Below are positions 19,381-39,039 of a stretch of DNA of 64,000 bases, piece by piece (position 1 is the first letter of the stretch; every line of letters begins with the position of its first letter). Under the pieces are notes generated by a model. It ran no database searches. It was not told the origin of the DNA and saw only the letters and a program-made list of their open reading frames with translations. The stretch is taken from the NCBI GenBank assembly GCA_024400505.1, contig JAKSMP010000001.1:5265-69264 (forward strand), written 5' to 3'. Both the position numbers and the translations under genes were made by a program. This stretch comes from Bacteroidales bacterium (GTDB lineage Bacteria > Bacteroidota > Bacteroidia > Bacteroidales > P3).

Positions 19381-19983
19381 ATTGATGTTTGCGATGTTCA
19401 TTCCAGCCTTGGCCGGGAGATGGGGACGTATATCTTGCTCTCTGCTCACCGTTGAGAGAAAAATAGCGATACCGAGAAGAACTTCCTGTCACTCTTTACT
19501 GCAATCAATAAGATGGCAGTGAAGTACGACATGCCAATCCTGTATAGCTGCCACCCTCGCAGTCGTAAGAGACTGGAGGCTACTGGCTTCAAACTGGATG
19601 AGCGTGTGATTATGCATGAGCCTCTAGGTTTCCATGATTACAATTGCCTTCAGATGAATGCCTTTGCTGTGGTGTCTGATTCGGGTACTTTGCCCGAGGA
19701 AAGTTCTTTCTTTACCTCTGTAGGCCATCCATTCCCCGCAGTGTGCATCCGTACTTCTACTGAGCGTCCAGAGTCGTTAGATAAAGCTGGTTTTATCCTT
19801 TCGGGCATTGATGAGAAAGGCCTGCTCCAGGCCGTGGATACTGCAGTAGAACTGGTTCGTGATGGCGATTACGGTCTGCCTGTCCCCAATTACGTTGACG
19901 AGAATGTCTCAACTAAGGTGGTGAAGATTATCCAGTCCTATGTCGGTGTCGTCAACAAGATGGTTTGGCGGAAGACCGAATAA
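19381..19983 (+). pseudogene. UDP-GlcNAc 2-epimerase (WecB) remnant: lacks the N-terminal half and carries an in-frame TGA
   Basis: The frame reads ...GTYILLSAHR*EKNSDTEKNF...MPILYSCHPRSRKRL...VVSDSGTLPEES. The TGA at 19453-19455 sits where the HREEN motif is expected. There is no N-terminal Rossmann half. Confidence 0.7.
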
Positions 19984-19997
19984 CGAAACTATGGTGG

Positions 19998-20052
19998 CCA
20001 CGAATAACGCGAATCGGACGAATTGGTATTCGTGATATTCGAGCGATTCGTG
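19998..20052. repeat. 55-nt imperfect-palindrome ACGAAT element, copy 1
   Basis: CCACGAATAACGCGAATCGGACGAATTGGTATTCGTGATATTCGAGCGATTCGTG. The arms pair around TGGT. Confidence 0.8.
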
Positions 20053-20129
20053 ATCAATGAATAAATACAGATATCAGAGGCATATGCAGATATCGTAATC
20101 TGTTAGCATAGCTTGATGATTTGAGTTGA

Positions 20130-20184
20130 CCACGAATAACGCGGATCGGACGAATTGGCATTCGTGATATTTGAGCGATTCGTG
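20130..20184. repeat. 55-nt imperfect-palindrome ACGAAT element, copy 2
   Basis: Same sequence with 3 mismatches, 132 nt downstream of copy 1. Confidence 0.8.
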
Positions 20185-20202
20185 TTCTCATATTAGCATT
20201 CT

Positions 20203-21282
20203 ATGGAGTCTGCAATAGAGACCCTTTTTGATTTGATTCGTGTTGCCCTTGGCAATGCCGAGTGGAGTTCCATCAGAAAGCCTGATGATTGGAAGTCTGT
20301 TTATAATCTTTCAAAACGGCAGGGGGTGTTGGCGTTGGTTTGTAGTGAGGATTTTATATCTCACGCTCAGGAGCTAGGCCTTGATTGGATGCTTCTATAT
20401 GAGTGGATCGGACAAAGAACTGTTGTCGAAGACACAAATCGTGCAAAGCTGTCAGCAGCCAACAAGTTGGCGAATCTTTGGGTAGAATCAGGCTTGCGAC
20501 CAGTCGCTCTGAAGGGTTTTTCTTATGCCCAATATTATCCTGAGCCGTTGCATCGTGTTTGTTCTGATTTAGACAGCTATTTATTTGATCGTTGGGAAGA
20601 TGGTAATAGATTGGTCGAACAACAGGGCATTGAGGTCTCTCGAAGCTATTATAAGAATTCTTCGTTCGATTTCCATGGTCTGTTTGTAGAAAACCATCGC
20701 TTTTGTTCGCCAATCCGTGGGGGAAAACATCGGAAATCATACGAAGGCTTTTTGCAATCTTTGTTGTCTTCGCAGCCGTGTTCCGTAATTGCAGGAATAC
20801 CATTTTTATCCCCGTCGCCATTGTTCAATTGCTTGTTCTTTATCTCCCATGCCCAAAACCATTTCTTAAATGAAGGTGGCATCCAGTTACGTCATGTGTG
20901 CGACTGGGGTGTGTTGATGAAGACATATCAAGAGGATTCAAAACTATGGGAGCAATTCCTAGATAATTGTGGCCAATTCGGATTTTTGAAGTTCGCCTAC
21001 TCAATTTCTCAGGTCTCATGTCGGGTGTGTAGCGTGAAAATCCCATTCGATTGTCCATCCAATGATGAATCAGATTTTGCGCTGCTCAAAGAAATTGTGA
21101 ACCCCACATGTGTGCAAGTCGAATTTTCGAAAGGTTGGCAGACTCGATGGCTTTTGGTAAAATCCATGTGGGGATCTAGATGGAAATATAAACTATACTC
21201 AGAGCAAAATATCCTAACCACATTCTTACAGATGGTTGGTGCATTTGTTCTTGAAAGACATCCCTCATTAGATGATCATTAA
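20203..21282 (+). CDS. Uncharacterised nucleotidyltransferase (NTP_transf_5-like), common in Bacteroidales CPS loci
   Basis: N-terminus LFDLIRVALGN...W..VYNLSKRQGVLALV matches my recollection of this family. Confidence 0.6.
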   Translation: MESAIETLFDLIRVALGNAEWSSIRKPDDWKSVYNLSKRQGVLALVCSEDFISHAQELGLDWMLLYEWIGQRTVVEDTNRAKLSAANKLANLWVESGLRPVALKGFSYAQYYPEPLHRVCSDLDSYLFDRWEDGNRLVEQQGIEVSRSYYKNSSFDFHGLFVENHRFCSPIRGGKHRKSYEGFLQSLLSSQPCSVIAGIPFLSPSPLFNCLFFISHAQNHFLNEGGIQLRHVCDWGVLMKTYQEDSKLWEQFLDNCGQFGFLKFAYSISQVSCRVCSVKIPFDCPSNDESDFALLKEIVNPTCVQVEFSKGWQTRWLLVKSMWGSRWKYKLYSEQNILTTFLQMVGAFVLERHPSLDDH

Positions 21283-21667
21283 TACTCAATTATTAGATTC
21301 TTTGACCGAACAGGCCAAAGCTAATCCCCGCCTGCGTCAAGCCTATGACTTGCGCACTACCCCCGACGACAACAGCCAACGTATCCTCAATGCGATGGAA
21401 CCGGGAACGGTACTTCCGATTCATCGGCATCGTGGCTCGACGGAAACCATCACAGTGCTGCGTGGTAAGGTTGTCCAACATCTTTACGACGCCGAAGGCC
21501 GTCTGCAAGAAAGCATCGTGATGGCACCAGCCAGTGCAGTCGTAGCCATGTCTGTAGAAGTGGGGCAGTGGCACAAGGCCGAAAGCCTCGAATCCGGCAC
21601 CGTCATCCTAGAATGCAAAGACGGCAAATACACCCCATTGACAGAAGAGGATATCTTGCATGAATAG
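21272..21667 (+). CDS. wbuC: WbuC-family cupin
   Basis: 131 aa with RILNAMEPGTVLPIHRH ... ETITVLRGK ... GQWHKAESLESGTVILECKDGKY. Confidence 0.75.
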   Translation: MIINTQLLDSLTEQAKANPRLRQAYDLRTTPDDNSQRILNAMEPGTVLPIHRHRGSTETITVLRGKVVQHLYDAEGRLQESIVMAPASAVVAMSVEVGQWHKAESLESGTVILECKDGKYTPLTEEDILHE

Positions 21668-22034: not shown

Positions 22035-22318
22035 ATGAAATGCTACTTTGATGACTTGTGTGTAGAGAATATCATAATAGGTGACAATGTAATTATTAGC
22101 TATGGCGTTTATTTTGTATGACATGGCAAGAACCAATCGCACAATAAAAAATTATCAAGGACAGAGCCGATATCAGAATGCGTGCGAATATTACTGCAAG
22201 GTATGTTATCGTTATTGGCGAAAGCGCAGTTGTAGGAGCGAGCACCTTGGTCAATAAATCAGTTCCCGATGGTGCGACCTGTGTGGGTGTGCCTGGAAGG
22301 ATTTTGGAGAAGAAATAA
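22035..22318 (+). pseudogene. Decayed hexapeptide acetyltransferase remnant
   Basis: Fragments MKCYFDDLCVENIIIGDNVIISYGVYFV* and ...ANITARYVIVIGESAVVGASTLVNKSVPDGATCVGVPGRILEKK* lie in different frames. Confidence 0.55.
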
Positions 22319-22364: not shown

Positions 22365-22499
22365 TGATGTCAAAAGCCGGCGAGTGTCGCGATGCGACTC
22401 ACGCTGGCTTAATCTGAGACATAACATATTCACCTGCACAAGTGACCGATTGGTTCCGTGCGATATGGGCAGGTGGGACAATATATACAATCAAAGATT

Positions 22500-23084
22500 A
22501 TGGATGAGAACATCAAATCTATCTACATAGAAATAGAAGAACGTTATGTAAAGATTGCTTGGACTCATAAGATTCAAGAAATTCAGGCCGGTTTATACTT
22601 AAAGAAAAGTAATTGTAATAAGTGGTGTATGGCAATATTTAATGGCGTTACAACTACTACTGCTTTTGTTACAGTTGTTACAAGTTTATTAGAAAGTATA
22701 GATGCAGACTGGGTCATGCCAGTACTTACATCTGTACTAGCTGTTATCTCTACCATTCTTACATTGAGATATAAGGATAGTGTATTAGATGAGAGTGCAT
22801 CGGCCTGTAAACAATATGCTGCTAAATGTCGCAATCTTCGGAACAAATACGAGGCTCTTCTGACGGATATTATGACTGGAAGATTTGTAAATGTTGAGGT
22901 GATTAGTTCCAAACGTGATTTGATGACGGAAGTGGAAAATGAACTGTTTGCAGGAGATATAGCCCCACATACAACAGAAAAAGCTGTTGCAATTGCAAAA
23001 AAAGCTTTGTTAGAAAATGGAGATTCGTTGACAACAGAATCGGAAATAAAAGCTATTGTACCTCAACATTTGCAAGTGTTATAA
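22500..23084 (+). CDS. SLATT-like 2TM effector protein
   Basis: Two adjacent TM helices (WCMAIFNGVTTTTAFVTVVTSLL and WVMPVLTSVLAVISTILTL) followed by a helical tail. Sits 15 nt upstream of the SMODS gene. ATG at 22500. Confidence 0.6.
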   Translation: MDENIKSIYIEIEERYVKIAWTHKIQEIQAGLYLKKSNCNKWCMAIFNGVTTTTAFVTVVTSLLESIDADWVMPVLTSVLAVISTILTLRYKDSVLDESASACKQYAAKCRNLRNKYEALLTDIMTGRFVNVEVISSKRDLMTEVENELFAGDIAPHTTEKAVAIAKKALLENGDSLTTESEIKAIVPQHLQVL

Positions 23085-23099
23085 ATAACTACAGAGTAT

Positions 23100-23906
23100 A
23101 TGTACACAGTTACCAAAAGAGGCGAAGTTATAAGCAGGGTGCAACGCAGTTTAATCTCTTTAAGGTATCGAAAAATAACAAAAGCTATAAACACAGAGTT
23201 CTGGGGGTCCACGAGTGAAACTGAGCATAGTTTTTATGTGGGCTCTTATGGACGAGGTACAGCTATTGACACAAGTGATATTGATATATTGGTAGAATTG
23301 CCAAAAGATGTATTTCAACGTTTCGATGCTCACAAAGGGAATGGCCAATCAAGATTGCTTCAAGCAGTAAAAGCTGCTATTGAAAGCACCTATTCAAGAA
23401 GCATGGTGCGCGCAGACGGACAGGTGATAGTCGTTACCTTTTCTGATGGAATAAAGTTCGAAATCTTACCTGCTTTTAGACATATTGTTTTTGGGTATTG
23501 GGATGGTACCTATGAATATCCAGACTCAAATATGGGTGGTCGATGGCTGACAACAAATCCAAAAGCAGAACAAGATGCAATGAAATCTCGAAATGAGTAC
23601 AGTAATGGGCTTTTATATGATACGTGTAAACACATGAGGTACATCCGTGATAATTATTTTAGTGGCTACCATCTTCCGGGTATTGTAATTGATAGTTTTG
23701 CTTATCATTATATAAAAGATTGGCATTGGTTAAGTGAAGGTGAATCACCTTCGGATAAACCAACTGGCACTTACGAGAAAGGTCTATACCAAACATGTCC
23801 ATCATGCAGTTTTAATCTGAATGCTCCTGGAAGTGAAATGAAGGTCGACACTTCCAGGTGTATTGATGTGCTGAATAAAGTTTTGAATTTTATGTCCAAA
23901 GATTAA
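23100..23906 (+). CDS. SMODS/CD-NTase-type nucleotidyltransferase
   Basis: Pol-beta NTase core: YVGSYGRGTAIDTSDIDILVELP, plus the downstream acidic strand ADGQVIVVTF. Confidence 0.7.
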   Translation: MYTVTKRGEVISRVQRSLISLRYRKITKAINTEFWGSTSETEHSFYVGSYGRGTAIDTSDIDILVELPKDVFQRFDAHKGNGQSRLLQAVKAAIESTYSRSMVRADGQVIVVTFSDGIKFEILPAFRHIVFGYWDGTYEYPDSNMGGRWLTTNPKAEQDAMKSRNEYSNGLLYDTCKHMRYIRDNYFSGYHLPGIVIDSFAYHYIKDWHWLSEGESPSDKPTGTYEKGLYQTCPSCSFNLNAPGSEMKVDTSRCIDVLNKVLNFMSKD

Positions 23907-24562: not shown

Positions 24563-27500
24563 ATGGCTAAGATTTATAATCCCAAAAGTAAACCAGTCTA
24601 TCATATAGTTCAACAGTTTTTGAATGCTCGTTTTGATAATAAAGAGTGTTCAAGAGTTGCTGCAAATTTGAAGTATGACGTGACAGGCAGAGTAATAGGT
24701 CAATCCTTAAATGACTTATTCCGCGTTTCTCCTCGTTATAAGGAATTGCTATGGGGTAATCAATTTCCTCGGTCAATTAATGACTTGGGTGAGGGGAATA
24801 GTTATTTTTTCAAATCAAATTCAATTTTCGCTGACATTGATTGGCTATACGTTCAAATTAGTAAGTATCATTCAGAAATATCAAAATTTGTAACGATACG
24901 AGATAAAGTAGAACAGTCAATTTTATTAGGACATTACGATACTGCCCATGCTTTATTGAAGGATATTCATAATGAGTTCGGAGAAAGCATTTGGTATTAC
25001 GAGATGAAAATGTTAGTCTATAGCTATTCTGGAAATGAAAGGCTAGCTCTTGAAATGCTAAGTGAGGTGAACAGGCATAAGGAAAACTCCAAATACGGTT
25101 TTGTTCCTTTCTTACTTTCTTATTTATTCAAGAGATGTTCAAAGTCGTACTCTGCCTATGCATATGACTCAGAGTTAGAGGGACGATTTAAATTAAATAG
25201 AACTGATTTTCAAAAGGATAGGTATGTTTATTATCTATTTAGACTTAATCTATATAAATCAAATGTTGTAGACGATTTGTCTCCTGTTCTAATCATGGAA
25301 GCGACAAATTCGTTGATCGATAGATATCAGTCTGTTATCAATATTTTGCGTCTGTCTTTTGCTTACTCAGATAATAATGCTATTAAAACATTATATGCTT
25401 TATATGCTTCAAAATTCTATAGGAAGACGAATGATAGACTATTGACTCCTATGGTTGCATATAGAAATATGAATAATCTACATTCAGATTATTACAATCT
25501 AAGATTGATTAATCTCTTAGATGATTATTATCGTGGTAATTATACATCCTGTATAGATAAGTGCAAGTCTTATGTGGTTGAAGACGTCCCAAACTTTGAC
25601 ATAATAAAAATATATTGTCGATCATTAATAGCATTGAAAGAAAAATATTCACAGATATGCACGAATGCTGAGTCAATATTAAATCAAATAGCGTATTATT
25701 CCTTCAAAATTATGTCAGAGACTGAGTACGAAGATAATATACATCGTTTGTATCAGTTGAATAAAAACATTTATGGGCTCTCTTTCGCCTCTGGACTAAG
25801 TTGTTTTATTGAATCAGAGTCCAATCACAAATCAAATAGTATTCATTCTGCTATTTCTTTGTGTTGTTATGATCCTTTGTTCTGTAATTATTTGGATGAA
25901 GATGATGCAAAACATAGATATGTACAGTTGGGCAAGGAACAGTTCGGCTCAATTGGAATTCTAGATTATGTAACTGATAGAATTAATAAAACTGTTTCAA
26001 CAAATACATACGTAACCAAGTATATACGAGATATTGATGCTGCGGTAAACTCTTTTAATGAGGGTCTATATGAGGATGCGCTTGATAAATGGAAAGTCAT
26101 ATTAGAAGATAATAAGGAAACACTTCCTATTGTTCAATCTGCTATAGAGTACATTTATCGGTGCTATGAAGAGCTAGATAAGAAACAAGAAGCAATTAGT
26201 CTATATGTAAAACACTATTTAAAAGGGAAATCATATGTTTCACATATTGATACTAAATTATTGACGACGCAATTATATAAAGACAAGTATAAGAAAGGTG
26301 TTAAAAACGGATTAGATCTTCAGTTGTTTGTCTTCATAAATGAAAACGAGGAAGAACGGAAAAGTGCAGTATTGGAAAGATTCTGTTTGTACCATGACGT
26401 TAATAAAGTCTCTGATTTGATTCCTGAGATTGAGTCAACAGAAAAGCGAGATAAGTTAGAGTTGTATTTGTATCTATTGGCATCTGATGATATTCTTCGA
26501 CACATGCCTTATGTGACAAGTACAAAAAAAATGTTGGACGAGCAGCAAATCCTAGCACAATATCTTTCTTCTCTAAGTGATTCAAAACATCTAAAACAGT
26601 ATGTAGAATTACAACAGGAGATAATTGAAACTATGATTGTATATCAGAACGTTAGAAAGATTGACGAAAGTAAGATATTTGTCAATCAAGGCGCTCTGTT
26701 TAGGTATGAATATAAAGAATATGAAAGTCTATATCAGCAGTTTAAAAATCAACTGGCGTTATCTGGAGAGACAAATCAGTACTATATTGTAAACACGCTC
26801 TCTTCAAGTGAATATCAAACAACAGACCCGACTCTCATTCATGCTCCAGTTCGTTTTACAAGCAAAAGTTTTATAGATTCTGCCTGTCAAGTTTTTTCGG
26901 TGCTAAGAGAGAAATTCCTTTTTAGCAAATTCGGATTAAAGACATATTTAAGTACGAGAATACGTCACGGTGTATTCGAAGGTGTTCTTCGTTCTGGATT
27001 TGACAGCTTACATCTTTTGTTGCTAACCGAGAATAATAGATATGTTCCCATTAGTTATTGGGGTGATAGATATGGCTTATTAAGTACTGAGCAAAGTGAA
27101 TTAATGAGAATACTTGGAAAGTTTTCTTCTGGCGTCAATTATACAATCGACCAATTCAAGGAAGATGTTTTACAGGTAAAAGTCTCTGACAATGAGCCTG
27201 GGTTATTTGATTTCAGACTTTCCCCTGACGACATGTGTTATGCAACTGTATCTGCAGAAACCAGATCCAATAGTTTTGAAGAGTTCTGTTATTTAATAAT
27301 GGAATATTTGCTTAATATGACGAATAAAAATCTCATAAATGTGCGTAATAAAATAGAAGAAGATCTGAAGAATTCATTTATGAGGTTAGTTGACAATCTT
27401 GAACAGGATGTTCAACAATTCTCAAAACTGCATTTTTATAGTGATTTAAAATTAGCCGTAATTAGTGCGCGTTCTGAGGTGAATCAAAAGATTGCTCAAG

Positions 27501-28009
27501 TAGAAAAATGGTTTTATCTGCAAGATGCAAAATTCGATGATTTTTCACTTCTTAGACAAATGAGAGTTGTTTGGAAAGTGACATCAAAAATGTATCCTAA
27601 TGATAGTTCCTCAATACGCATTGAAGGCGATGAGTTTGATGTTAAGATTAAGGCAGCTTATTTGATACATATATCAGACATCTTGACTATTTTCTATAAT
27701 AATATGTTGAGTTATAGTAAGTCATCGGATATGAGCTCTTTTTTCGTTAGCCTTAGCCAAGAAAATAACATTATTAATCTTCACTTCGAAAATGAGATTA
27801 AAGAAGATGAAGATCAACTAAATGCTAAATTTGAGGATATGTTAAAATCAGATTCTAGACTACAAGTAGAAGGAAGAAGTGGACTGGTTAAAGTAAGGAA
27901 AATCATAAAATATGATTTAGGTTGTGAGCAAAATGAACTCTCAATAAAGGCATTAGATGGAAAATGTATAGCAGAAGTTTTCGTTGATAAAAAAGAAATT
28001 TGCGTATGA
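24563..28009 (+). CDS. dtcA: Detocs DtcA-like sensor: large helical-repeat N-terminal region plus C-terminal GHKL/HATPase_c
   Basis: 1148 aa from the ATG at 24563. The C-terminus has an N-box-like ILTIFYNNMLSYS and a G-box-like EGRSGLVKVRKI. The long helical region looks TPR-like. Stop overlaps the next ATG (ATGA). Confidence 0.65.
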   Translation: MAKIYNPKSKPVYHIVQQFLNARFDNKECSRVAANLKYDVTGRVIGQSLNDLFRVSPRYKELLWGNQFPRSINDLGEGNSYFFKSNSIFADIDWLYVQISKYHSEISKFVTIRDKVEQSILLGHYDTAHALLKDIHNEFGESIWYYEMKMLVYSYSGNERLALEMLSEVNRHKENSKYGFVPFLLSYLFKRCSKSYSAYAYDSELEGRFKLNRTDFQKDRYVYYLFRLNLYKSNVVDDLSPVLIMEATNSLIDRYQSVINILRLSFAYSDNNAIKTLYALYASKFYRKTNDRLLTPMVAYRNMNNLHSDYYNLRLINLLDDYYRGNYTSCIDKCKSYVVEDVPNFDIIKIYCRSLIALKEKYSQICTNAESILNQIAYYSFKIMSETEYEDNIHRLYQLNKNIYGLSFASGLSCFIESESNHKSNSIHSAISLCCYDPLFCNYLDEDDAKHRYVQLGKEQFGSIGILDYVTDRINKTVSTNTYVTKYIRDIDAAVNSFNEGLYEDALDKWKVILEDNKETLPIVQSAIEYIYRCYEELDKKQEAISLYVKHYLKGKSYVSHIDTKLLTTQLYKDKYKKGVKNGLDLQLFVFINENEEERKSAVLERFCLYHDVNKVSDLIPEIESTEKRDKLELYLYLLASDDILRHMPYVTSTKKMLDEQQILAQYLSSLSDSKHLKQYVELQQEIIETMIVYQNVRKIDESKIFVNQGALFRYEYKEYESLYQQFKNQLALSGETNQYYIVNTLSSSEYQTTDPTLIHAPVRFTSKSFIDSACQVFSVLREKFLFSKFGLKTYLSTRIRHGVFEGVLRSGFDSLHLLLLTENNRYVPISYWGDRYGLLSTEQSELMRILGKFSSGVNYTIDQFKEDVLQVKVSDNEPGLFDFRLSPDDMCYATVSAETRSNSFEEFCYLIMEYLLNMTNKNLINVRNKIEEDLKNSFMRLVDNLEQDVQQFSKLHFYSDLKLAVISARSEVNQKIAQVEKWFYLQDAKFDDFSLLRQMRVVWKVTSKMYPNDSSSIRIEGDEFDVKIKAAYLIHISDILTIFYNNMLSYSKSSDMSSFFVSLSQENNIINLHFENEIKEDEDQLNAKFEDMLKSDSRLQVEGRSGLVKVRKIIKYDLGCEQNELSIKALDGKCIAEVFVDKKEICV

Positions 28010-28455
28010 ATAGAATTTTGATCGTTGAAGATTTGCCAGAAAAGGCAGACGAAATAAAGGTGGTAATTGCAAAAGCATTTCCAAATATTGAAATTGAAGA
28101 GAGGACTTCTTATCATTCTGCAATTGAGGAGATTTACCAAAATCATCCTCGGTATAAGCTAATTCTCCTTGATATTTCAATGTCTACATTTGATGTTAAT
28201 GTAGAAGAAAATGGAGGTCTGCCAGAATCCTTAGCTGGGAAAAGAATACTTCAGGGAATGTATTTGCGGGACATCCCAACCAAAGTAAAAGTGGTAACCA
28301 TGTATGAAAGCTTTGATGGTAAAAGTATCAAGGAACTTGATAGAGAACTAAAAGAAGATAATCCAGATAGCTATGATGGATTCATTTTCTTCTCTTTCAA
28401 AAAGAGTGAATGGAAAAAGCAGTTAGTTGAATATTTAAACACAGTCATATGTTAA
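28006..28455 (+). CDS. dtcB: Detocs DtcB-like stand-alone receiver (REC) protein
   Basis: ILIVEDLPEKADEI ... YKLILLDISM (acceptor Asp) ... KVKVVTMYES. No output domain. Confidence 0.7.
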   Translation: MNRILIVEDLPEKADEIKVVIAKAFPNIEIEERTSYHSAIEEIYQNHPRYKLILLDISMSTFDVNVEENGGLPESLAGKRILQGMYLRDIPTKVKVVTMYESFDGKSIKELDRELKEDNPDSYDGFIFFSFKKSEWKKQLVEYLNTVIC

Positions 28456-29705
28456 GGGTTTTATTACTAGATGATTCTGAAAAGAAGATTGCTGATGTGA
28501 AAAAAGTTTTGCTAGACGTTTGTGGTTTGCAAGATCAAGAAATTGATATTGCAAAGAGTGTTTCTTCTGGAAGAAGAAGTGTTGCCAAAGAGTACTATGA
28601 TATTGTTCTTTTGGATTTGGTTTTACCCATGTATGATGGTGAAAATCCGATAGAAGATGGAGGTCTTAGTTTTATCCGCCAAATTTCATCAGCAGGTGAG
28701 ACTGTGAAAATGCCGACGCAGATTATTGGTCTCACAGAAAAAGAAGATGCATATGAAAAGGAAAAAAAGGAATTTGAAGAATTACTCTTCAGTGTGATTA
28801 CTTGTAAACAGAAAGATACATCATGGATATCACAATTGGCTCAGGTTGTCAATTTTGCAAATAGAAGCAAGAATTCGATTTTAAAAAGTTTAACGATAAG
28901 AACAAAATACGATGTCGGAATAGTATGCGCTCTGCCGGAAGAATATAAGCAATTAATAGCTGCTTTTGGCGGAGAAGAGAAGTGGTCAAAGATTACTGTA
29001 GAAGAGGACGTGCCATTTATATTCCGAGAAACAATCCTCACAACAGCCAACAATAATGATGTCAGAATTGTATCTACTATGGCTGGTCGACCAGGAGTAA
29101 TACCAACAAGCGTTGTTACAACATTATTGTATTCAATGTTTCATGTTGATACTGTATTTATGACGGGATTTTCTGCTGGTTTTCCATCAAAGAATTTAAA
29201 ACTAGGTGATATCCTGATAGCATCATCAATAGAGGATTATGCATCTGGGAAATTGGTAGATGCAGGAGGGTCAATAAAACTCTTAAAAGAAATGCATCAA
29301 ATTGAAACTTCGACATCTTTATCTTTGAAAATGCAAGAAATGATTGAGGATGATGTAACTCAATCTATTATGATGAGTAAACTAAAGAAGTCGAATTTGG
29401 TAGTAGAAGAGAGAGACTCTTATCAGCTGCATATGTCCGCAACTTGCTGCGGTCCTTTTGTGGTTACGTCTACCGAAGCTGTTGATGAACTAAAGAAAAC
29501 AGATCGTAAACTTGAAGGACTTGACATGGAGGGCTTTGGATTGTATTTGACCTCTAAAATATTGACAGGAAACAAACAAAAAGGAGCAATGTGGATAAAA
29601 GGCGTTGGTGATTTTGCTAATCCTGAAAAATCCGACGGTTATCATAAAACATGTTCTTTTGGTAGTGCCACAATTCTATACCGCTTCATTAAGGAAATGA
29701 TGTAA
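28449..29705 (+). CDS. dtcC: Detocs DtcC-like response regulator with PNP/nucleosidase (PNP_UDP_1-like) effector domain
   Basis: N-terminal REC (VLLLDDSEKK ... YDIVLLDLVLPM). C-terminal phosphorylase-fold motifs: KYDVGIVCALPEEYKQL, FMTGFSAG, GLDMEGFGL. Confidence 0.7.
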   Translation: MLRVLLLDDSEKKIADVKKVLLDVCGLQDQEIDIAKSVSSGRRSVAKEYYDIVLLDLVLPMYDGENPIEDGGLSFIRQISSAGETVKMPTQIIGLTEKEDAYEKEKKEFEELLFSVITCKQKDTSWISQLAQVVNFANRSKNSILKSLTIRTKYDVGIVCALPEEYKQLIAAFGGEEKWSKITVEEDVPFIFRETILTTANNNDVRIVSTMAGRPGVIPTSVVTTLLYSMFHVDTVFMTGFSAGFPSKNLKLGDILIASSIEDYASGKLVDAGGSIKLLKEMHQIETSTSLSLKMQEMIEDDVTQSIMMSKLKKSNLVVEERDSYQLHMSATCCGPFVVTSTEAVDELKKTDRKLEGLDMEGFGLYLTSKILTGNKQKGAMWIKGVGDFANPEKSDGYHKTCSFGSATILYRFIKEMM

Positions 29706-30000: not shown

Positions 30001-30091
30001 GGGATATTCAGATCTGTCTTTAACGATGTGTAACAATCGTCATCTTCGATGGTGTACAGATTGCTATGTAATGCGATTTGCAGAAATCTAT

Positions 30092-30273
30092 TTTACGACA
30101 CCGAAGGCCGTCTGCAAGAAAGCATCGTGATGGCACCAAGTAGTGAGGTCGTAGCCATGTCTGTAGAAGTGGGGCAGTGGCACAAGGCCGAAAGCCTCGA
30201 ATCTGGCACCGTCATCCTCGAATGCAAAGACGGCAAATACACCCCATTGACTGAAGAAGAGGTCATGGGTTGA
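30092..30273 (+). pseudogene. Duplicate 3-prime fragment of wbuC
   Basis: 30092-30260 aligns to 21483-21650 at roughly 93 percent identity (YDTEGRLQESIVMAPSSEVVAMSVEVGQWHKAESLESGTVILECKDGKYTPL). Confidence 0.8.
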
Positions 30274-30314: not shown

Positions 30315-31187
30315 ATGGCAAAGAAAGAAAAAAATATAATAGTTCTTATTGTTATCGGATCTTTGATTCTGGCTCTATTAATAAATCTATTGCTCTCGTC
30401 TAAATGGGGCTTTATCCCTACATGTTTTTCTTCTAAGGATTGGCTTGGCTTTTGGGCTACTTACGCCACTGGTATTTTTGCTGTTATTATCGGCTATTAC
30501 GCTATTGTTGCGTCAAACAGGAATAGTCGGCAGGCTATTGTACAGCAAAGCGAAATTCTTATCCGACAAAAAAGTGATGAGATATTTCATGAAATCTATA
30601 CTGAAGTAAAGCATCAGGTTCGTCTAACGAACCTGGTTAGATTCACCTCAACTTTATCTACCATAAATGAGGATTGTATTCCTCAACTGAAGCAAGATGT
30701 TTTGGAAAAAAGTTCCTCTATCTCAGAACGTCACCTCCAATGGGTTTTAATAAAAAGTTTATACCTGAATTCTGAATATGTTTTGCAGATTGCAGAAGAA
30801 TACAATAAGGTGTGGAATGCGGTTTCTCAAAAAATGTCGGAATGTTTAAATCTGGAAATAAAGTTGTTTGATTATTTGGAAGAAATAAAGTCTGTGGATC
30901 AGCATATATCAATTCTCTCCAAGTTATTGGACGTGCAGAAATCAATGACTATTAACGAATGTAGGGAACTTGAGATTTCTGAATACGAGAAACAAAAGGA
31001 AGATGTAATAACGAAAAAGGGCCGGTTGATTCGGCAATACGAAGAGTTAGTTCCTCGGTTGAATCAAAGTTTATCGAGTATGCAAAATATTCAAGATGAG
31101 TTATTGACCGCTTCGGTGAAGTTCCTCGGTCAACTAAGTGGTTTTACGTTTATCCCCTCTTCAGATTCGAGAACTATTCGACATTAG
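30315..31187 (+). CDS. Hypothetical 2TM + coiled-coil protein
   Basis: Two N-terminal TM helices (IIVLIVIGSLILALLINLLL and ATGIFAVIIGYYAIVA), then about 220 aa of helical, heptad-rich sequence. No family recognised. Confidence 0.55.
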   Translation: MAKKEKNIIVLIVIGSLILALLINLLLSSKWGFIPTCFSSKDWLGFWATYATGIFAVIIGYYAIVASNRNSRQAIVQQSEILIRQKSDEIFHEIYTEVKHQVRLTNLVRFTSTLSTINEDCIPQLKQDVLEKSSSISERHLQWVLIKSLYLNSEYVLQIAEEYNKVWNAVSQKMSECLNLEIKLFDYLEEIKSVDQHISILSKLLDVQKSMTINECRELEISEYEKQKEDVITKKGRLIRQYEELVPRLNQSLSSMQNIQDELLTASVKFLGQLSGFTFIPSSDSRTIRH

Positions 31188-31281: not shown

Positions 31282-31575
31282 ATGCTTGTACAACCAATAG
31301 AGCGATTTTCGAATGATGGGAAGACCCCAACAACAATTCCAGTCTTAAAACGTAGTTGTTATTGGGTGGATCATTCAATGTCTGTTTCGGGTGATGCCCC
31401 CAAAGAACTAATCCATATTTACAGATATACACAAGATAATAAGTTTCACAAGAAAAATCGGAAACATTGGCCGCTGTTTATTGCAAAGACGGGGCACGTG
31501 TATTCGTTACGTAAAGAAATGATAATAAAATGCCTTGAATATCGTTATTATAAAATAAAAAGTTTAATGCAATGA
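31282..31575 (+). CDS. Hypothetical protein, translationally coupled to the next gene
   Basis: 97 aa. Stop overlaps the ATG of 31572 (ATGA). No family recognised. Confidence 0.4.
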   Translation: MLVQPIERFSNDGKTPTTIPVLKRSCYWVDHSMSVSGDAPKELIHIYRYTQDNKFHKKNRKHWPLFIAKTGHVYSLRKEMIIKCLEYRYYKIKSLMQ

Positions 31576-31955
31576 GCATAATGAATAAACTTAAAATGTT
31601 ATGGCATGATAGCGAACAGACTAATGTCGGTGCAATCAATGGCAAGTATGGTCGTTTTGACCTTATGAAGGATGACTTGTTGATTGGAGTGTTGGAATAT
31701 GCAAATGATTCTTGGACATTCAAATATTCTCCTGACTTTATCAAACAAACTGAATTCGCCCCACTGGTAAATTTCCCCGATTGTCAAAAACTTTATACGA
31801 CTGGAACTGATCAGTTGTGGCCTTTCTTTTCATCTCGTATCCCAGGCATGGCGCAACTGAGATATGCAAATGATGATCAGAAGGATATTCTTACGCTTTT
31901 GCAAAAATATGGTCGTCATGTGATTGCAAATCCGTATGTACTGATTCCTGTCTAA
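31572..31955 (+). CDS. HipA N-terminal-domain-like (HipS-like) protein without a kinase partner
   Basis: 127 aa. LIGVLEYANDSWTFKYSPDF ... LWPFFSSRIPG resembles the HipA N-subdomain pattern (VG.L...F.Y ... FF.NLLPEG). Confidence 0.45.
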   Translation: MSIMNKLKMLWHDSEQTNVGAINGKYGRFDLMKDDLLIGVLEYANDSWTFKYSPDFIKQTEFAPLVNFPDCQKLYTTGTDQLWPFFSSRIPGMAQLRYANDDQKDILTLLQKYGRHVIANPYVLIPV

Positions 31956-32346: not shown

Positions 32347-32515
32347 TAGGTAGGAGGTGTGAATAGGTAGGAGGTGGGAATAGGTAGTAGGTAGTAGGTA
32401 GCAGGTGGGAGGTAGTAGGTAGCAGGTAGCAGGTAGTAGGTAGCAGGTAGGAGGTAGCAGGTGGGGCGGGGACCGGTGGGGGGCAGGTAGTAGGTGGGGG
32501 CGGGGGCCGGTGGGA
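32347..32515 (+). repeat. Heptamer tandem array (NAGGTAG)n plus GGGGCGGGGACCGGTGGGG motifs
   Basis: Read directly: ...TAGGTAGTAGGTAGTAGGTAGCAGGTGGGAGGTAGTAGGTAGCAGGTAG... Confidence 0.95.
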
Positions 32516-32580
32516 TGGGGTGCAGAGTGGATTGTACAGAGTTTAGGGTGGAGAGGGCTGGCGCAGGTGGGCTGGATGGG

Positions 32581-32698
32581 GAACCGCGAAAGACGCGAAA
32601 GGCACGAAATTTTTTCTTTAAGCTGCTAACGTGTTGGGCTTGCTGGAGCAAGCTAAGGACACGAAAATTTTTAGCGTTATTTAGCGTTTTTATCGGTT
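32581..32698 (+). repeat. CGAAA-hairpin core element, copy 1 (MITE-like)
   Basis: GAACCGCGAAAGACGCGAAAGGCACGAAA ... GCTTGCTGGAGCAAGC ... TTTAGCGTTATTTAGCGTTTTTATCGGTT. The arms are imperfect inverted repeats. Confidence 0.9.
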
Positions 32699-32758
32699 GT
32701 ATTTTTTTAGCGGTTGTGATTGGTGATTTGTGGTGAGAATTAGGTCTCCCCCTAAAAA

Positions 32759-32807
32759 CCTACTACCTGCTACCTACTACCTGATTTACCTACTACCTGA
32801 TCTACCT
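32759..32807 (-). repeat. Inverted short heptamer array (CTACCTN)n
   Basis: CCTACTACCTGCTACCTACTACCTGATTTACCTACTACCTGATCTACCT. Reverse complement of the array at 32347. Confidence 0.9.
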
Positions 32808-32820
32808 TGCTCTCGTTCAA

Positions 32821-33612
32821 TTACTCTTCTTCGTCGCTGCCATTCGTGGTTCCGCCGCCGCCACTATTGGCTGTGAAGATGGCGGTGAGGGCCATGTCGC
32901 TATTGACTACAATACTGCGTGAGGCTTGGGTGTTGCCATCGCTCCAACGGGTGAAGGTGAAGCCGCTGGCCGCCGTGGCTGCTATCGCCGCTGTGGCTCC
33001 ACTCTCGTATTGTCCGCCACCTGTCACTGTACCACCATTGGCTGGCGATGCGCTAAGGGTTAACGTCTTTCTTCCAGTAGGCGTGGGTGTCGGAGCCGGG
33101 TCGTCAGGATTTTCTTCCACCGGTCGTGACCCTGCTGCCCGCTTGGCCGCAGCCAATGTCTCGGCGGTGGATCCTTTGGTGAGTACTTCGTGGAATGTGG
33201 CATCTTTGCGCAGGTCGGCAAACTTGCTGCCTTTGCTCCACACTACGTTCACTTTCTTGATGTTGATGGAACTGAATTCGTCCATGTATTCAGCCCCCAT
33301 ACTCACCAACGAGAGACGGAAGCTGCCGAGGTCGCCCAACTCCACTGATTTGCCGGCTAGGAGCTGCTCTCGCAAGCAACTGACGGCTTTCTTGAGGATG
33401 GCTTGCACATCGGCTGCATCGTATGAACAGCCATGGTCGGCGATGTGGTTGGAGAAGGACTCGAGGTCCATGGTTTCAATGCTCTGGGCGTTGCCGTAGT
33501 AACGGAATATGGCACCAGGGAATGTTTCGACCTTCAGGTCGGGATTTGCTTTTTTGGCCACTTGGAACTCTGCGATGTTCGTGAGTCGTGGCGCTACACT
33601 GTAAAGAATCAT
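32821..33612 (-). CDS. Bacteroidales HU-related DNA-binding protein with C-terminal Listeria/Bacteroides repeat
   Basis: HU-like core LLAGKSVELGDLGSFRLSL, a Pro/Thr linker, then GGTVTGGGQYESGATAAIAATAASGFTFTRWSDG. Confidence 0.7.
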   Translation of the reverse strand: MILYSVAPRLTNIAEFQVAKKANPDLKVETFPGAIFRYYGNAQSIETMDLESFSNHIADHGCSYDAADVQAILKKAVSCLREQLLAGKSVELGDLGSFRLSLVSMGAEYMDEFSSINIKKVNVVWSKGSKFADLRKDATFHEVLTKGSTAETLAAAKRAAGSRPVEENPDDPAPTPTPTGRKTLTLSASPANGGTVTGGGQYESGATAAIAATAASGFTFTRWSDGNTQASRSIVVNSDMALTAIFTANSGGGGTTNGSDEEE

Positions 33613-33649
33613 GTTGTTTTAAAATTTTAAAAATTGTTATTGTTTTTTT

Positions 33650-33724
33650 AGGTAGGAGGTAGCAGGTAGGAGGTAGTAGGTAGCAGGTAGTAGGTAGTAG
33701 GAGGGCGGGAGCCGGTGGGGGAGG
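33650..33724 (+). repeat. Heptamer array plus GGGCGGGAGCCGGTGGG
   Basis: Read directly. Starts 38 nt upstream of the minus-strand HU-like start. Confidence 0.95.
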
Positions 33725-33838
33725 GAACCGCGAAAGACGCGAAAGGCACGAAAATTTTTCAGGTCGCTAACGTGTTGTGCTTGCTGGAGCAAGCTAAGGC
33801 GCGAAAATTTTTAGCGTTATTTAGCGTTTTTAGCGGTT
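33725..33838 (+). repeat. CGAAA-hairpin core element, copy 2
   Basis: Same consensus as copy 1. Confidence 0.9.
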
Positions 33839-33845
33839 GGGGAAA

Positions 33846-33970
33846 TAGGTAGTAGGTGTGAATAGGTAGTAGGTAGCAGGTAGAAGGTAGTAGGTGGGGG
33901 CGGGAGCCGGGATTTTTTTAGGTAGGAGGTAGTAGGTAGGAGGTAGTAGGTGGGCGGGAGCCGGTGGGGG
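33846..33970 (+). repeat. Heptamer array, two blocks each ending in GGGCGGGAGCCGG
   Basis: Read directly. Confidence 0.95.
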
Positions 33971-33975
33971 AAAGG

Positions 33976-34092
33976 GAACCGCGAAAGACGCGAAAGGCAC
34001 GAAATTTTTTTCAAGTTGCAAACGTGTTGGGCTTGCTGAAGCAAGCGAAGGTTACGAAATTTTTTTAACATTGTTTTGCGTTTTTAGCGGTT
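33976..34092 (+). repeat. CGAAA-hairpin core element, copy 3
   Basis: Same consensus with a degenerate right arm. Confidence 0.85.
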
Positions 34093-34099
34093 AGAAAAT

Positions 34100-34282
34100 T
34101 AGGTGGTAGGTGTGAATGGGTAGGAGGTAGCAGGTAGGAGGTAGTAGGTAGTAGGAGGGCGGGGGCAGGTAGTAGGTAGCAGGTAGAAGGTAGTAGGTGG
34201 GGGCGGGAGCCGGTGGGAGGGGGGCAGGTAGTAGGTAGCAGGTAGGAGGGAGTAGGGGGGGGCGGGGCCGGGAGTGGGGGGT
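34100..34282 (+). repeat. Heptamer array with three G-rich motifs
   Basis: Read directly. Confidence 0.95.
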
Positions 34283-34462
34283 GGTCTGTGTTGTGTCTTC
34301 ATTTGTTTACTTTTCATTTTAACTGCGTGTAGGATTAATTGGTACTTTTTTGTTTTGTTTTGCAAAGATACGACTTTTAACATTCGCTGGTCGTGCGTTA
34401 TGATGCGATTGGGTGCTGTGGTATGAGATAAAGTGAGATTACTTTGATCCTTCCTGCCTAAA

Positions 34463-34699
34463 TCAGGGGCTGCCGAGGTAGGAGACGATGAGGGCGACTT
34501 CTTTGGAGGTGTAGTATTTGCTGTATTTGTTGTACCCGATATCGTCCAGTGCTTTGCTAAGCGGGGCACAGCGTTTGATCCAGAGCGTGAGCCGGTTGAC
34601 TGCTGAGCGTGAGTCCGCCAGGGGAAAGTAGCAATGTGCAAGTGCTTGTTTGCTGTAGGTCCTGATAGGGAACGGTGGTGTGGTGAAGTTGTCTTCCAT
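34463..34699 (-). CDS. DUF4248 domain protein
   Basis: 78 aa from the ATG at 34699: YSKQALAHCYFP ... AVNRLTLWIKRC ... GYNKYSKYYTSKEVALIVSYLGSP. Confidence 0.7.
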   Translation of the reverse strand: MEDNFTTPPFPIRTYSKQALAHCYFPLADSRSAVNRLTLWIKRCAPLSKALDDIGYNKYSKYYTSKEVALIVSYLGSP

Positions 34700-34782
34700 G
34701 TGTATTTCTGTTTTTTGTTCATTATAGGTTAGGTGGACTGAGGGGTCAGGTCGTCTCGCCGTACTTGTTAGGTCGTATCGGT

Positions 34783-35829
34783 CTAGGCGTCCATGGTGTT
34801 TGAAGTTTTTGACTCTAGGAGTAGTTCTACCAAGTCGATCTTGCGCTCTTTCTGGTCGGGAGTGGATAGGCGTTCGAGTATGTCGGAGGTGTAGATGGCT
34901 AGTCCTGTCTTGCTGCTGATTTCTGCCGCATGCTTCCGCCAAAGGGCGTAGGCTTTCCCTTCGGGATCGGTGTCGGGGAAGAGTATGATTCGATAGCCGC
35001 TGCCTTGGAAGGGGGTGAAGAGTTCTGCATGGAGGTTGTTCATCCCGCCCGTGGCCATCCAGATGGCCCGGGGGATCAACAGCGAACAGATGACGGCCGT
35101 CTTCTCACTCTCTACTATGGCTATCGGCTGGCCGTCTTCGTGTCTCGCATGCTTTGAGATGAGGTGCAGGCCGAAGAGGCAGCGGGTGGCATGGTGGCTC
35201 TTGGGTAGTTGTCCGCGCCGTTTCAATACCGAAGTGATGGTGTAGGGGGCATGGCTCTGGCTCCGGTGACCATCGGGTCGATACTGCATCACCTTGCCTT
35301 CATGCACCTGTTGCTGCTCGTCCACCTGCCAGAAGATGACTCCCCCATCATGCGTGGCTCCAAGATGGTATCTGGCTACCGCCTCTTCCATCTGGTCGGC
35401 GGTGAGGATGCCCGATTGTACCATGGACCAGCAGAACGTGTTTCTGCCCGACTGACACCGCGACAGGTACAAGGCCGGGAGGTAGTCGTTTGTTGGCTGC
35501 GCTTTCGGCAGCGATGGGGTGGTGCGTGGCTTCGGCATGGGTTTGATCTGTTTTGTCAGGCTTATGTCTTCTTCGATATTGAATTGCTCGGAGAGCCATC
35601 GGCAGGCTTCGATGAAACCGAGGTTTTCTTTGGCCATCACGAGGTTGATGGTGCTGCCTCCTTTGCCACAAGAAAAGCAGTACCAGAGGTTCTCGCTGAC
35701 GTTGAAGGTGAGGCTTGGGTGTTTGTATTCGTGAAGAAAACAATTGCATTTGTGGTGTCGGACTTCTATTCCGAGTGCATTCGCCACTTCTTCGATGGGG
35801 ATGGTGCGTATTTTGTCTAGATTGAACAT
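34783..35829 (-). CDS. CHC2 zinc-finger / Toprim DNA primase-like protein
   Basis: From the ATG at 35829. CHC2 finger: CFLHEYKHPSLTFNVSENLWYCFSCGKGG. Toprim: VESEKTA and LFPDTDPEG. The longer ORF-track version runs into repeat sequence. Confidence 0.75.
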   Translation of the reverse strand: MFNLDKIRTIPIEEVANALGIEVRHHKCNCFLHEYKHPSLTFNVSENLWYCFSCGKGGSTINLVMAKENLGFIEACRWLSEQFNIEEDISLTKQIKPMPKPRTTPSLPKAQPTNDYLPALYLSRCQSGRNTFCWSMVQSGILTADQMEEAVARYHLGATHDGGVIFWQVDEQQQVHEGKVMQYRPDGHRSQSHAPYTITSVLKRRGQLPKSHHATRCLFGLHLISKHARHEDGQPIAIVESEKTAVICSLLIPRAIWMATGGMNNLHAELFTPFQGSGYRIILFPDTDPEGKAYALWRKHAAEISSKTGLAIYTSDILERLSTPDQKERKIDLVELLLESKTSNTMDA

Positions 35830-35844
35830 GGGGTAAGGGGGTGT

Positions 35845-35972
35845 TAGGTAGTAGGTGTGAATAGGTAGTAGGTAGTAGGTGGGGCGGGAGCCGGTGGGAG
35901 GAGGGTGGAGGTAGTAGGTAGTAGGTAGTAGGTAGCAGGTAGTAGGTGGGGCGGGAGCCGGTGGGAGGGAGG
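35845..35972 (+). repeat. Heptamer array plus G-rich motifs
   Basis: Starts 16 nt upstream of the minus-strand primase ATG. Confidence 0.95.
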
Positions 35973-36089
35973 GAACCGCGAAAGACGCGAAAGGCACGAA
36001 ATTTTTTCTTTAAGCTGCTAACGTGTTGGGCTTGCTGAAGCAAGCGAAGGCACGAAAATTTTTAGCGTTATTTAGCGTTTTTAGCGGTT
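35973..36089 (+). repeat. CGAAA-hairpin core element, copy 4
   Basis: Same consensus. Confidence 0.9.
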
Positions 36090-36096
36090 GAAAAAT

Positions 36097-36193
36097 TAGG
36101 TGGTGGGTAGCAGGTAGCAGGTGGGGCGGGAGCCGGTGGGAGGAGGGTGGAGGTAGTAGGTAGCAGGTGGGGCGGGAGCCGGTGGGAGGGAGG
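36097..36193 (+). repeat. Heptamer array plus G-rich motifs
   Basis: Read directly. Confidence 0.95.
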
Positions 36194-36299
36194 GAACCGC
36201 GAAAGACGCGAAAGGCACGAAATTTTTTCTTTAAGCTGCTAACGTGTTGGGCTTGCTGAAGCAAGCAAATGTTACGGAAATTTTTAGAGTTTTTGCGGT
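36194..36299 (+). repeat. CGAAA-hairpin core element, copy 5
   Basis: Same consensus with a degenerate right arm. Confidence 0.85.
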
Positions 36300-36378
36300 A
36301 TGGATTGGTGGTTTGTGATGTGGGGTTCGGGGATGTGATTGGTGTTTGTGATGAGAGTTAGGTTTTCCCAATAAAATA

Positions 36379-36404
36379 CCTACTACCTGCTACCTACTAC
36401 CTGA
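36379..36404 (-). repeat. Inverted heptamer block
   Basis: CCTACTACCTGCTACCTACTACCTGA, preceded by GTGATTGGTGTTTGTGATGAGAGTTAGGTTTTCCCAATAAAATA. Confidence 0.9.
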
Positions 36405-36460
36405 TTCTTTTGCGGTTGTGATTGGTGTTTGTGGTGAGAGTTAGGTTTTCCCAATAAAAT

Positions 36461-36496
36461 ACCTGCTACCTACTACCTGATATACCTACTCCCTGA
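36461..36496 (-). repeat. Inverted heptamer block, second copy of the about 95-bp right-end module
   Basis: ACCTGCTACCTACTACCTGATATACCTACTCCCTGA, preceded by the same GTGATTGGTGTTTGTGGTGAGAGTTAGG module. Confidence 0.9.
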
Positions 36497-36568
36497 TTCA
36501 TTGCCTGAGTCCTTCTACTTTTTCGCTCGGCTTTCCCTACTTCCCCCGGTATCCCCTAGAGGGGATAC

Positions 36569-37714: not shown

Positions 37715-37822
37715 TGATATACTTTTTTCTTCAAAAATTGTTTATTTTGCAAAAGTACATACGCTGCCTGACATAAGAGGCCATATATGACCCTGCTAGG
37801 CATCGAGGAAAAATGATAAACT

Positions 37823-38855: not shown

Positions 38856-38928
38856 GGTGCAGAGTGGATTGTACAGAGTTTAGGGTGGAGAGGGTTGGGC
38901 ACAGGTGGGTTGGATGGGGAACCGCGAA

Positions 38929-39032: not shown

Positions 39033-39039
39033 AGAAAAT

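Follow-up and report, generated by a model that had tools for sequence, protein, structure and literature searches.

What is encoded by a three-gene operon whose long first product is annotated as a 'hypothetical protein' in the NCBI record of its metagenome-assembled genome (MAG)? The operon lies at 24563-29705 in a stretch of 64,000 nucleotides from an uncultured Bacteroidales bacterium of gut type (assembly GCA_024400505.1, contig JAKSMP010000001.1, positions 5,265 to 69,264 of the forward strand). This whole stretch is hereafter called the window, and its coordinates are used for the operon and its surroundings. A first reading of the letters, made without database searches (the original prediction), had proposed a Detocs-like two-component defence system with an effector of the purine nucleoside phosphorylase (PNP) fold. 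Our comparisons of sequences and predicted structures indicate that the three genes are very probably dtcA-dtcB-dtcC of Detocs, a defensive two-component system, here with a PNP effector of the ATP-nucleosidase type. 'Detocs-like' can be strengthened to full membership, as judged by PADLOC models, validated proteins and published Bacteroides relatives. Exact-sequence look-ups returned nothing beyond the NCBI MAG record and a Logan contig of 5.4 kb, neither of which added context.

Assignment of the operon to Detocs

The PADLOC search that had been suggested as a check gave strong matches for all three proteins: gene 1 to PDC-M60A (8.9e-62 over amino acids (aa) 85-1116), gene 2 to PDC-M60B (2.7e-30) and gene 3 to PDC-M60C (1.4e-72). 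PDC-M60 is a computational label, and we probed its identity by scanning validated Detocs proteins (Rousset Table S1) against the PADLOC library. The Vibrio alginolyticus proteins VaDtcB and VaDtcC match PDC-M60B (1e-17) and PDC-M60C (1.4e-64), respectively. From Enterobacter cloacae, DtcB matches PDC-M60B (5.8e-28), the receiver part of DtcC matches PDC-M60C (8.7e-19) and the first 399 aa of DtcA match PDC-M60A (1.4e-10). Because validated proteins of both systems match the same models, PDC-M60 coincides with Detocs. The proteins of the window score better on these models than the founding Vibrio proteins do.

The three co-directional open reading frames (ORFs) of the operon are all on the + strand, and direct reading confirmed the overlapping arrangement first described. 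Gene 1 (dtcA, 24563-28009) encodes 1148 aa counted from ATG. Its frame is open from 24530, where an in-frame TTG is an unlikely start because M1 of the 1148-aa protein is conserved among homologues. Gene 2 (dtcB, 28006-28455, frame open from 28000) encodes 149 aa from ATG, and gene 3 (dtcC, 28449-29705) encodes 418 aa. The dtcA/dtcB junction GTATGAAT (TGC GTA TGA / ATG AAT) is a 4-nt ATGA overlap and the dtcB/dtcC junction ATATGTTAAGG (ATA TGT TAA / ATG TTA AGG) a 7-nt ATGTTAA overlap; such stop/start overlaps would fit a translational coupling of the Dtc proteins. The motifs quoted in the original prediction were all located: STRIRHG (aa 797-803), FYNNMLSYS (1044-1052) and GRSGLVKV (1104-1111) in gene 1, LLDISM at aa 54 of gene 2, and LLDLVLPM, GIVCALPEEY and GLDMEGFG at aa 54, 157 and 357 of gene 3. 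The G+C content of the operon is 33.4%, lower than the 45% of the window and the 51% of its downstream half. A sigma-70 promoter scan gave 39 matches versus 36.6 expected, not above chance and with a model unsuited to Bacteroidota; a terminator scan was likewise near chance (7 versus 5.0 expected), and we claim neither a promoter nor a terminator.

The published MacSyFinder rule for Detocs asks for adjacent homologues of dtcA, dtcB and dtcC and tolerates no more than one foreign gene among them (doi 10.1101/2023.01.24.525353). In the window the three genes, with homology judged by the PADLOC models, are contiguous and overlapping. Each product also has the architecture that defines its Detocs counterpart: for the tetratricopeptide repeat (TPR) N-terminus and histidine kinase C-terminus with phospho-histidine of DtcA, a solenoid followed by a histidine kinase-type core with H802; for the stand-alone receiver DtcB, 149 aa with the acceptor D56; and for DtcC, in which a receiver is fused to a toxic effector, D56 followed by a PNP domain with D388.

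Relatives were collected by a scan with a DtcA alignment over one genome per GTDB species, which gave 139 loci; 80 of them were retrieved for comparison. The residue counts given below refer to alignments of 74 DtcAs, two of them from enterobacterial plasmids, 82 DtcBs and 47 DtcCs including VaDtcC. A homologue search gave 47 full-length relatives of DtcA. Among the loci of the scan, the DtcA of Bacteroides graminisolvens DSM 19988 is 49% identical to the window protein over aa 12-1146, followed by those of B. gallinarum DSM 18171 (35%), Parabacteroides gordonii MS-1 (33%) and Flavobacterium rivuli (30%). All four species appear in Detocs context in Rousset Table S4, and the two Bacteroides strains are listed as Detocs/PNP in Table S5 (doi 10.1101/2023.01.24.525353). 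The window operon belongs to the same clade as the systems of these two strains and shares their gene sizes and PNP effector, while differing in flanking genes; we found no experimental test of either system in the literature searched.

Essentially all of the 80 loci have the A-B-C gene order, in which DtcA precedes an ORF of about 150 aa resembling DtcB and then a receiver-effector ORF. The flanking genes and intergenic DNA of the window operon recur beside Detocs in none of them; therefore, the context is of no help in defining Detocs. The DtcC effectors of the retrieved loci comprise 43 PNP and 30 other domains. PNP is the effector domain in 80% of published Detocs systems, and effectors are modular, a DpnII-MboI restriction-endonuclease type having already been reported (doi 10.1101/2023.01.24.525353). 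One of the non-PNP cases scanned here, that of locus L032, likewise carries a DpnII-MboI domain.

The collection also holds some atypical loci. Four DtcCs (L062:9778-10833, L067:7606-8700, L079:8309-9523 and L009:9910-10926) have, after the receiver, a C-terminal domain that spans about 200-250 aa and matches no Pfam family; these domains may be uncharacterised Detocs effectors. A 507-aa ORF at L073:9471-10994 resembles a DtcB-DtcC fusion, and an insertion of about 1.5 kb splits the dtcA of L019 (5971-11002). In L074 the Detocs locus is complete, on a contig assigned to a Candidatus Nanoarchaeia bin, possibly through mis-binning.

Among the closest known systems is the Detocs of V. alginolyticus UCD-32C (doi 10.1101/2023.01.24.525353). 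The two systems have in common the order kinase, stand-alone receiver and receiver-PNP, the H-box Y-L-x-x-R-I-R-H-G, both acceptor aspartates, the catalytic aspartate of the PNP domain and the PADLOC models. They differ in their hosts, Proteobacteria for the Vibrio system and Bacteroidota for the window, and in DtcA, which is alignable over the kinase core only (E 1e-6 to the orthologue of Klebsiella pasteurii) and whose N-terminal sensor exceeds that of the Vibrio protein by about 170 aa in the window (H802 versus H645).

Kinase, receivers and effector

DtcA (24563..28009, +) is assigned as a sensor histidine kinase from its PADLOC match, its homologues, AlphaFold2 (AF2) and Foldseek, together with weak TPR similarity. 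The AF2 models have a mean pLDDT of 85.4 for the full-length protein and 85.7 for the fragment of aa 745-1148. Up to about aa 700 the protein is predicted to form an alpha-solenoid of about 35 helices; Foldseek matches it to the TPR-rich SKI complex, and weak TPR profile matches fall at aa 486-556 (E 1e-3). The helical-repeat N-terminal region recognised at first reading is supported by these results, whereas its supposedly unusual size is not: at 1148 aa the protein is close to the median of its 74 relatives (1155 aa, range 966-1192 aa) and to the PDC-M60A models (1161-1165 positions), and only the DtcAs of the Vibrio/Klebsiella clade are shorter (966-983 aa). Nothing usable for DtcA came from Pfam, NCBIfam or phmmer against the PDB. 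A precomputed Pfam label, PF27260, is present on all DtcA homologues.

The H-box, G-x3-Y-L-S-T-R-I-R-H-G, spans G791-G803 (FGLKTYLSTRIRHG, 26933..26971, +). G791, Y795, L796, R799, R801, H802 and G803 are invariant in 74/74 DtcAs, and YLS[TA]RIRHG is the stretch that the DtcA scan picked as most conserved. H802 (codon 26966-26968) is the sole invariant histidine of the protein. It was connected to the Vibrio system through the plasmid-borne system of K. pasteurii, whose DtcC is 63% identical to VaDtcC and whose DtcA is 43.5% identical to the N-terminal 399 aa of VaDtcA. The K. pasteurii DtcA carries the motif SYLGRRIRHG with its histidine at position 646, and H802 aligns with this residue both by BLASTP (790-1114 versus 634-945, E 1e-6) and in the multiple alignment; it also aligns with H629 of the K. 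pneumoniae DtcA. In V. alginolyticus, the H645A mutation of VaDtcA abolishes defence (doi 10.1101/2023.01.24.525353). Since H802 is invariant in the 74 DtcAs and aligned with H646, the counterpart of VaDtcA H645, STRIRHG is the predicted phospho-acceptor motif of the family. The original prediction had picked out this motif as a weak candidate lying about 260 aa upstream of the N-box. The choice was right, but the motif, far from being weak, is conserved more strongly than any other element of the family, and the measured distance is 245 aa.

In the AF2 model H802 sits at a helix-kink-helix (RIR-HG), where helix 792-801 gives way to helix 804-815. The H-box is followed by four long helices (841-868, 888-901, 905-953 and 959-981). 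Judged by secondary structure and alignment lengths, some 100 residues separate H802 from the downstream long helical hairpin, which adjoins the catalytic ATP-binding (CA) domain. Structure prediction had been proposed as a way to find the dimerization and histidine phosphotransfer (DHp) helix and its histidine; by the same criteria H802 appears to lie outside the DHp-like hairpin, and the 74-DtcA alignment has no conserved histidine in the hairpin.

The predicted CA domain (aa 996-1148, 27548..28006, +), assigned from AF2, Foldseek, weak profile matches and conservation, is an alpha/beta sandwich whose elements follow the order of histidine kinase CA domains: the helix of N1047, two strands ending at N1077 (27791-27793), a helix, a lid at 1098-1105 of low confidence or disordered, and a helix from G1107. 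The N-box residue N1047 (27701-27703) is invariant (74/74), as are G1107 and K1110 of the G2-like motif E1103/S1106/G1107/K1110. Foldseek retrieved, with probability 1.00, HK853, ZraS, AgrC, CheA P3P4, a bacteriophytochrome histidine kinase and the pyruvate dehydrogenase kinases (PDHK) 1-4; the CA domain of ThkA gave TMt 0.70 and an rmsd of 4.2 A, and matches spanning two domains reached global TM-scores of only 0.3-0.5. Of 270 PDB matches to aa 745-1148 at E<=1e-3, the best 50 are all histidine kinases, CheA or PDHK kinases. There are also weak profile matches to the CA domains of VanS, YycG and AgrC (E 0.07-0.4). The GHKL ATPase announced for gene 1 is in this way recovered by fold and not by Pfam: DtcA belongs to the histidine kinase/PDHK structural superfamily (Bergerat fold), while of the canonical HisKA/HATPase_c features it has the N-box asparagine and the G2-like EGxSG and lacks the profiles and DxGxG.

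DtcB (28006..28455, +) was described at first reading as a bare receiver, and this holds. Its acceptor D56 (28171-28173) is found in 82/82 homologues, as are D9 and K13; E8, which forms an acidic pocket with D9, and T98 are conserved too. The DtcB family profile matches Spo0F at 1e-7 and 67 receiver structures, and an acidic pocket with an acceptor aspartate is what Spo0F/CheY-like receivers have. DtcB is 28% identical (E 1e-17) to the validated E. cloacae DtcB, and a mutant of the acceptor aspartate has a published phenotype (doi 10.1101/2023.01.24.525353). The second receiver occupies aa 1 to about 135 of DtcC (28449..28853, +); its D9, K13, D56 and P60 are conserved in 47/47 DtcCs. D56 (28614-28616) aligns with D58 of VaDtcC, the mutation of which abolishes defence (doi 10.1101/2023.01.24.525353).

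The remainder of DtcC (aa about 153-418, 28905..29705, +) is a predicted nucleosidase effector of the fold shared by PNP and methylthioadenosine/S-adenosylhomocysteine (MTA/SAH) nucleosidase (MTAN). The PNP_UDP_1 search suggested for gene 3 passed the Pfam gathering threshold (4.3e-10, 39.8 versus 25.1 bits) and the catalytic residues are kept, which bears out the description of gene 3 as a receiver joined to a PNP-fold domain. E165 of ALPEE (28941-28943), M360/E361 of DMEG (29526-29531) and the predicted catalytic D388 (29610-29612) are each found in 47/47 DtcCs; we take them to correspond to E12, M173/E174 and D197 of Escherichia coli MtnN. D388 also aligns with the catalytic D353 of VaDtcC, whose D353A mutant has a published phenotype (doi 10.1101/2023.01.24.525353). 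Four basic residues, R353, K354, K384 and K394, are invariant as well (47/47) and plausibly bind triphosphate. The NCBIfam search found weak MTA/SAH-nucleosidase and response-regulator similarity (MTAN 38 bits versus a cutoff of 169). The best matches are to Detocs models, to the PN-superfamily effector model of the cyclic oligonucleotide-based antiphage signalling system (CBASS) in PADLOC (5.9e-15) and to the PNP domain of Cap17 (28% identity over 116 aa, E 1e-6), rather than to a housekeeping MTAN. Cap17, a CBASS ATP-nucleosidase of the immune PNP clade, resembles DtcC in its PNP/MTAN-fold effector; it is activated by a cyclic-nucleotide sensor, whereas DtcC would use receiver phosphorylation.

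Proposed mechanism and alternative readings

All steps of the mechanism considered here are transferred by homology from the V. alginolyticus Detocs. By this analogy, DtcA would sense an infection-related trigger, and its C-terminal core would bind ATP (N1047, E1103-S-G1107-x-x-K1110 lid) and autophosphorylate H802, a chemistry that we assume. The phosphoryl group would then move from DtcA to D56 of the DtcC receiver. The PNP domain (E165, M360/E361, D388), once activated, would cleave ATP and dATP at their N-glycosidic bond, yielding adenine together with (deoxy)ribose-5'-triphosphate. Exhaustion of energy and dATP would lead to a growth arrest that aborts the infection. DtcB, a proposed phosphate sink, would compete through its own D56 for the phosphoryl group, buffer a leaky kinase and so prevent autoimmunity.

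Several observations weigh against this assignment. The mechanism is borrowed from a system whose DtcC is just 21% identical to ours, and the equivalence of H802 with VaDtcA H645 was reached through the K. pasteurii orthologue, with an offset of one residue. Neither Pfam (0 families at E<=1) nor NCBIfam finds HisKA (PF00512) or HATPase_c (PF02518) in DtcA, so that the profile check proposed for gene 1 failed. The kinase core has no DxGxG G1 box, the equivalent position being an asparagine in 72/74 DtcAs. Its histidine is farther from the N-box than in textbook kinases, the spacing being 228-251 aa in all 74 DtcAs; in HisKA kinases the H-box and N-box are about 100-120 aa apart. Finally, the Response_reg check matched both gene 2 and gene 3, but below the Pfam threshold (PF00072; 20.6 and 18.2 versus 30.2 bits). 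The receiver identity of the two proteins is nevertheless supported by the comparison of the family profile with the PDB and by the conserved residues.

The alternative that survives best, which we regard as improbable, keeps the Detocs signalling and lets the PNP domain of this clade act on a substrate other than ATP or dATP, such as another nucleotide, NAD+ or MTA-like nucleosides. The low identity to VaDtcC leaves room for it: the specificity of the PNP fold is unpredictable at such a distance, and the best named relative in NCBIfam, albeit far below the cutoff, is an MTA/SAH nucleosidase. Nevertheless, the catalytic residues and the four basic residues are invariant in the DtcCs, VaDtcC among them, which suggests a common phosphate-rich substrate, and the matches to the Cap17-type CBASS effectors argue in the same direction.

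That the operon is a decaying, non-functional relic of Detocs appears less probable still. The source is an uncultured MAG, and the surrounding region is a mosaic with gene fragments (a truncated cupin gene, an epimerase fragment and an acetyltransferase-like remnant). The three ORFs are, however, of full length compared with their homologues and free of frameshifts; all family-invariant residues are kept and the overlapping junctions are intact.

We give very little credence to a housekeeping or regulatory phosphorelay controlling nucleoside salvage or capsule expression instead of phage defence. Such a role could be suspected from the position of the operon between two capsule-biosynthesis regions and from the phosphorelay protein Spo0F being the best structural relative of the DtcB profile. 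It is contradicted by the missing DNA-binding output domain, the Dtc output being a nucleosidase where classical response regulators have a DNA-binding domain, and by the models matched, which are defence and not housekeeping models. In sister loci, moreover, a domain of the DpnII-MboI restriction-endonuclease type takes the place of this effector, which suits a toxic effector better than metabolism, and the operon is CBASS-adjacent in a low-GC insertion with neighbours unconserved in related loci.

Just as improbable, finally, is DtcA as a PDHK-like Ser/Thr kinase or a non-kinase GHKL ATPase, with the receivers controlled otherwise: PDHK is among the top Foldseek matches, the HisKA/HATPase_c profiles and DxGxG are missing and H802 is outside the hairpin directly before the CA domain, but HK853, ZraS, AgrC, CheA P3P4 and a bacteriophytochrome are matched equally well, the sole invariant histidine lies within the family's best-conserved motif, the two partner receivers have invariant acceptor aspartates and VaDtcA loses defence upon H645A mutation. 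A regulatory two-component system, a PDHK-like serine kinase and a decayed relic were accordingly rejected on these points, and we retain the Detocs assignment.

As a histidine kinase, DtcA is unusual. It resembles class I histidine kinase/response regulator pairs such as HK853-RR468 in its Bergerat-fold CA domain placed after long helices, and differs from them in the missing profile matches, the missing DxGxG and the longer gap between H-box and N-box; PDHK structures rank beside bacterial histidine kinases in its fold searches. We tentatively raise the possibility, doubtful as it still is, that DtcA kinases throughout Detocs make up a class of histidine kinases with a structure distinct from the others. 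If true, the geometry of phosphotransfer would be nearer to that of a tethered histidine phosphotransfer (HPt)/CheA-like or a PDHK-like system than to that of a DHp-embedded histidine. No later mechanistic or structural paper on Detocs was found in the literature searched, and for this reason the atypical layout of the kinase core, which we infer to be a trait of the family and not of this locus, may be undescribed so far.

Surroundings of the operon and significance

Directly upstream of the operon lies a complete two-gene type I CBASS (22458-23906), a separate system that the first reading had overlooked. It consists of a SLATT_4 effector with two transmembrane segments (2TM; 22458-23084, +; Pfam SLATT_4 1.4e-29, PADLOC 2TM effector 2.5e-32) and a SMODS/CD-NTase cyclase (23100-23906, +; Pfam SMODS 2.4e-41, PADLOC cyclase 4.4e-123). 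Also overlooked was a direct repeat of 176 nt, found by repeat search and pairwise alignment, the copies of which are 8609 nt apart and flank an 8.6-kb block with both CBASS and Detocs. The left copy (21483..21658, +) forms the 3' end of a DUF6016/cupin gene that is intact (21272-21667); the right copy (30092..30267, +), 93% identical, belongs to a 5'-truncated cupin gene fragment (ORF 30049-30273). The block has a GC content of 0.365 versus 0.512 downstream, and no tRNA gene, no Rfam family and, among the ORFs inspected, no recognisable integrase was seen in it. Capsule and glycan genes stand on either side, in agreement with the island flanking capsular polysaccharide genes described in the original prediction.

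Other features were noted around the block. To its left, a 156-aa ORF (19513-19983) corresponds to the C-terminal third only of a UDP-GlcNAc 2-epimerase, a full copy of which is found at 49852-50976; it is followed by a 61-nt direct repeat (19995-20055 and 20127-20187, 92%). A 46-aa ORF at 22178-22318 resembles, by eye, the C-terminus of a hexapeptide acetyltransferase. Just past the right copy of the 176-nt repeat, a 290-aa ORF (30315-31187) begins with a hydrophobic N-terminus and has a long tail, rich in Glu, Lys, Gln and Leu, that suggests helices; it has no Pfam family and a weak CARF-related match in PADLOC (1e-4). A 127-aa ORF (31572-31955), preceded and overlapped by a 97-aa ORF (region 31282-31955), contains the HipA N-terminal domain Couple_hipA alone (3e-4; PADLOC PDC-M03B 6e-9) and may be a truncated HipA-like toxin module. 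Farther on, tandem arrays of the heptamer AGGTAG[C/T/G] with periods of 7, 14 and 21 are scattered over 32347-39234 (for instance 32347-32514, 33649-33951, 34119-34271, 36106-36194, 38318-38851 and 39040-39234). They occur in both orientations at many intergenic sites near HU-HIG, primase-like (DUF6371/CHC2) and AAA_25 genes. Linked to them are G-rich GGGGCGGGAGCCGGTGGG units and, at 38758-38841, a poly-G tract, and the stretch 33662-34217 consists of 2.2 copies of a 254-nt unit.

As judged from its sequence, the operon is a genuine, intact and ordinary copy of the Detocs of the Bacteroidota clade, a type of system already known. It adds one more unannotated instance, which standard defence-finder tools would flag, and leaves the biology of Detocs unchanged. 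The analysis has pinned down the H-box of DtcA and the atypical spacing of its kinase core, and has documented a compact CBASS and Detocs cassette, bracketed by a direct repeat, between capsule gene regions. Within Detocs, the Bacteroidota clade is common in Bacteroidales of the gut and rumen; it keeps all the residues that have proved essential in Vibrio, and would be a reasonable candidate for a first functional test of Detocs in Bacteroidales.

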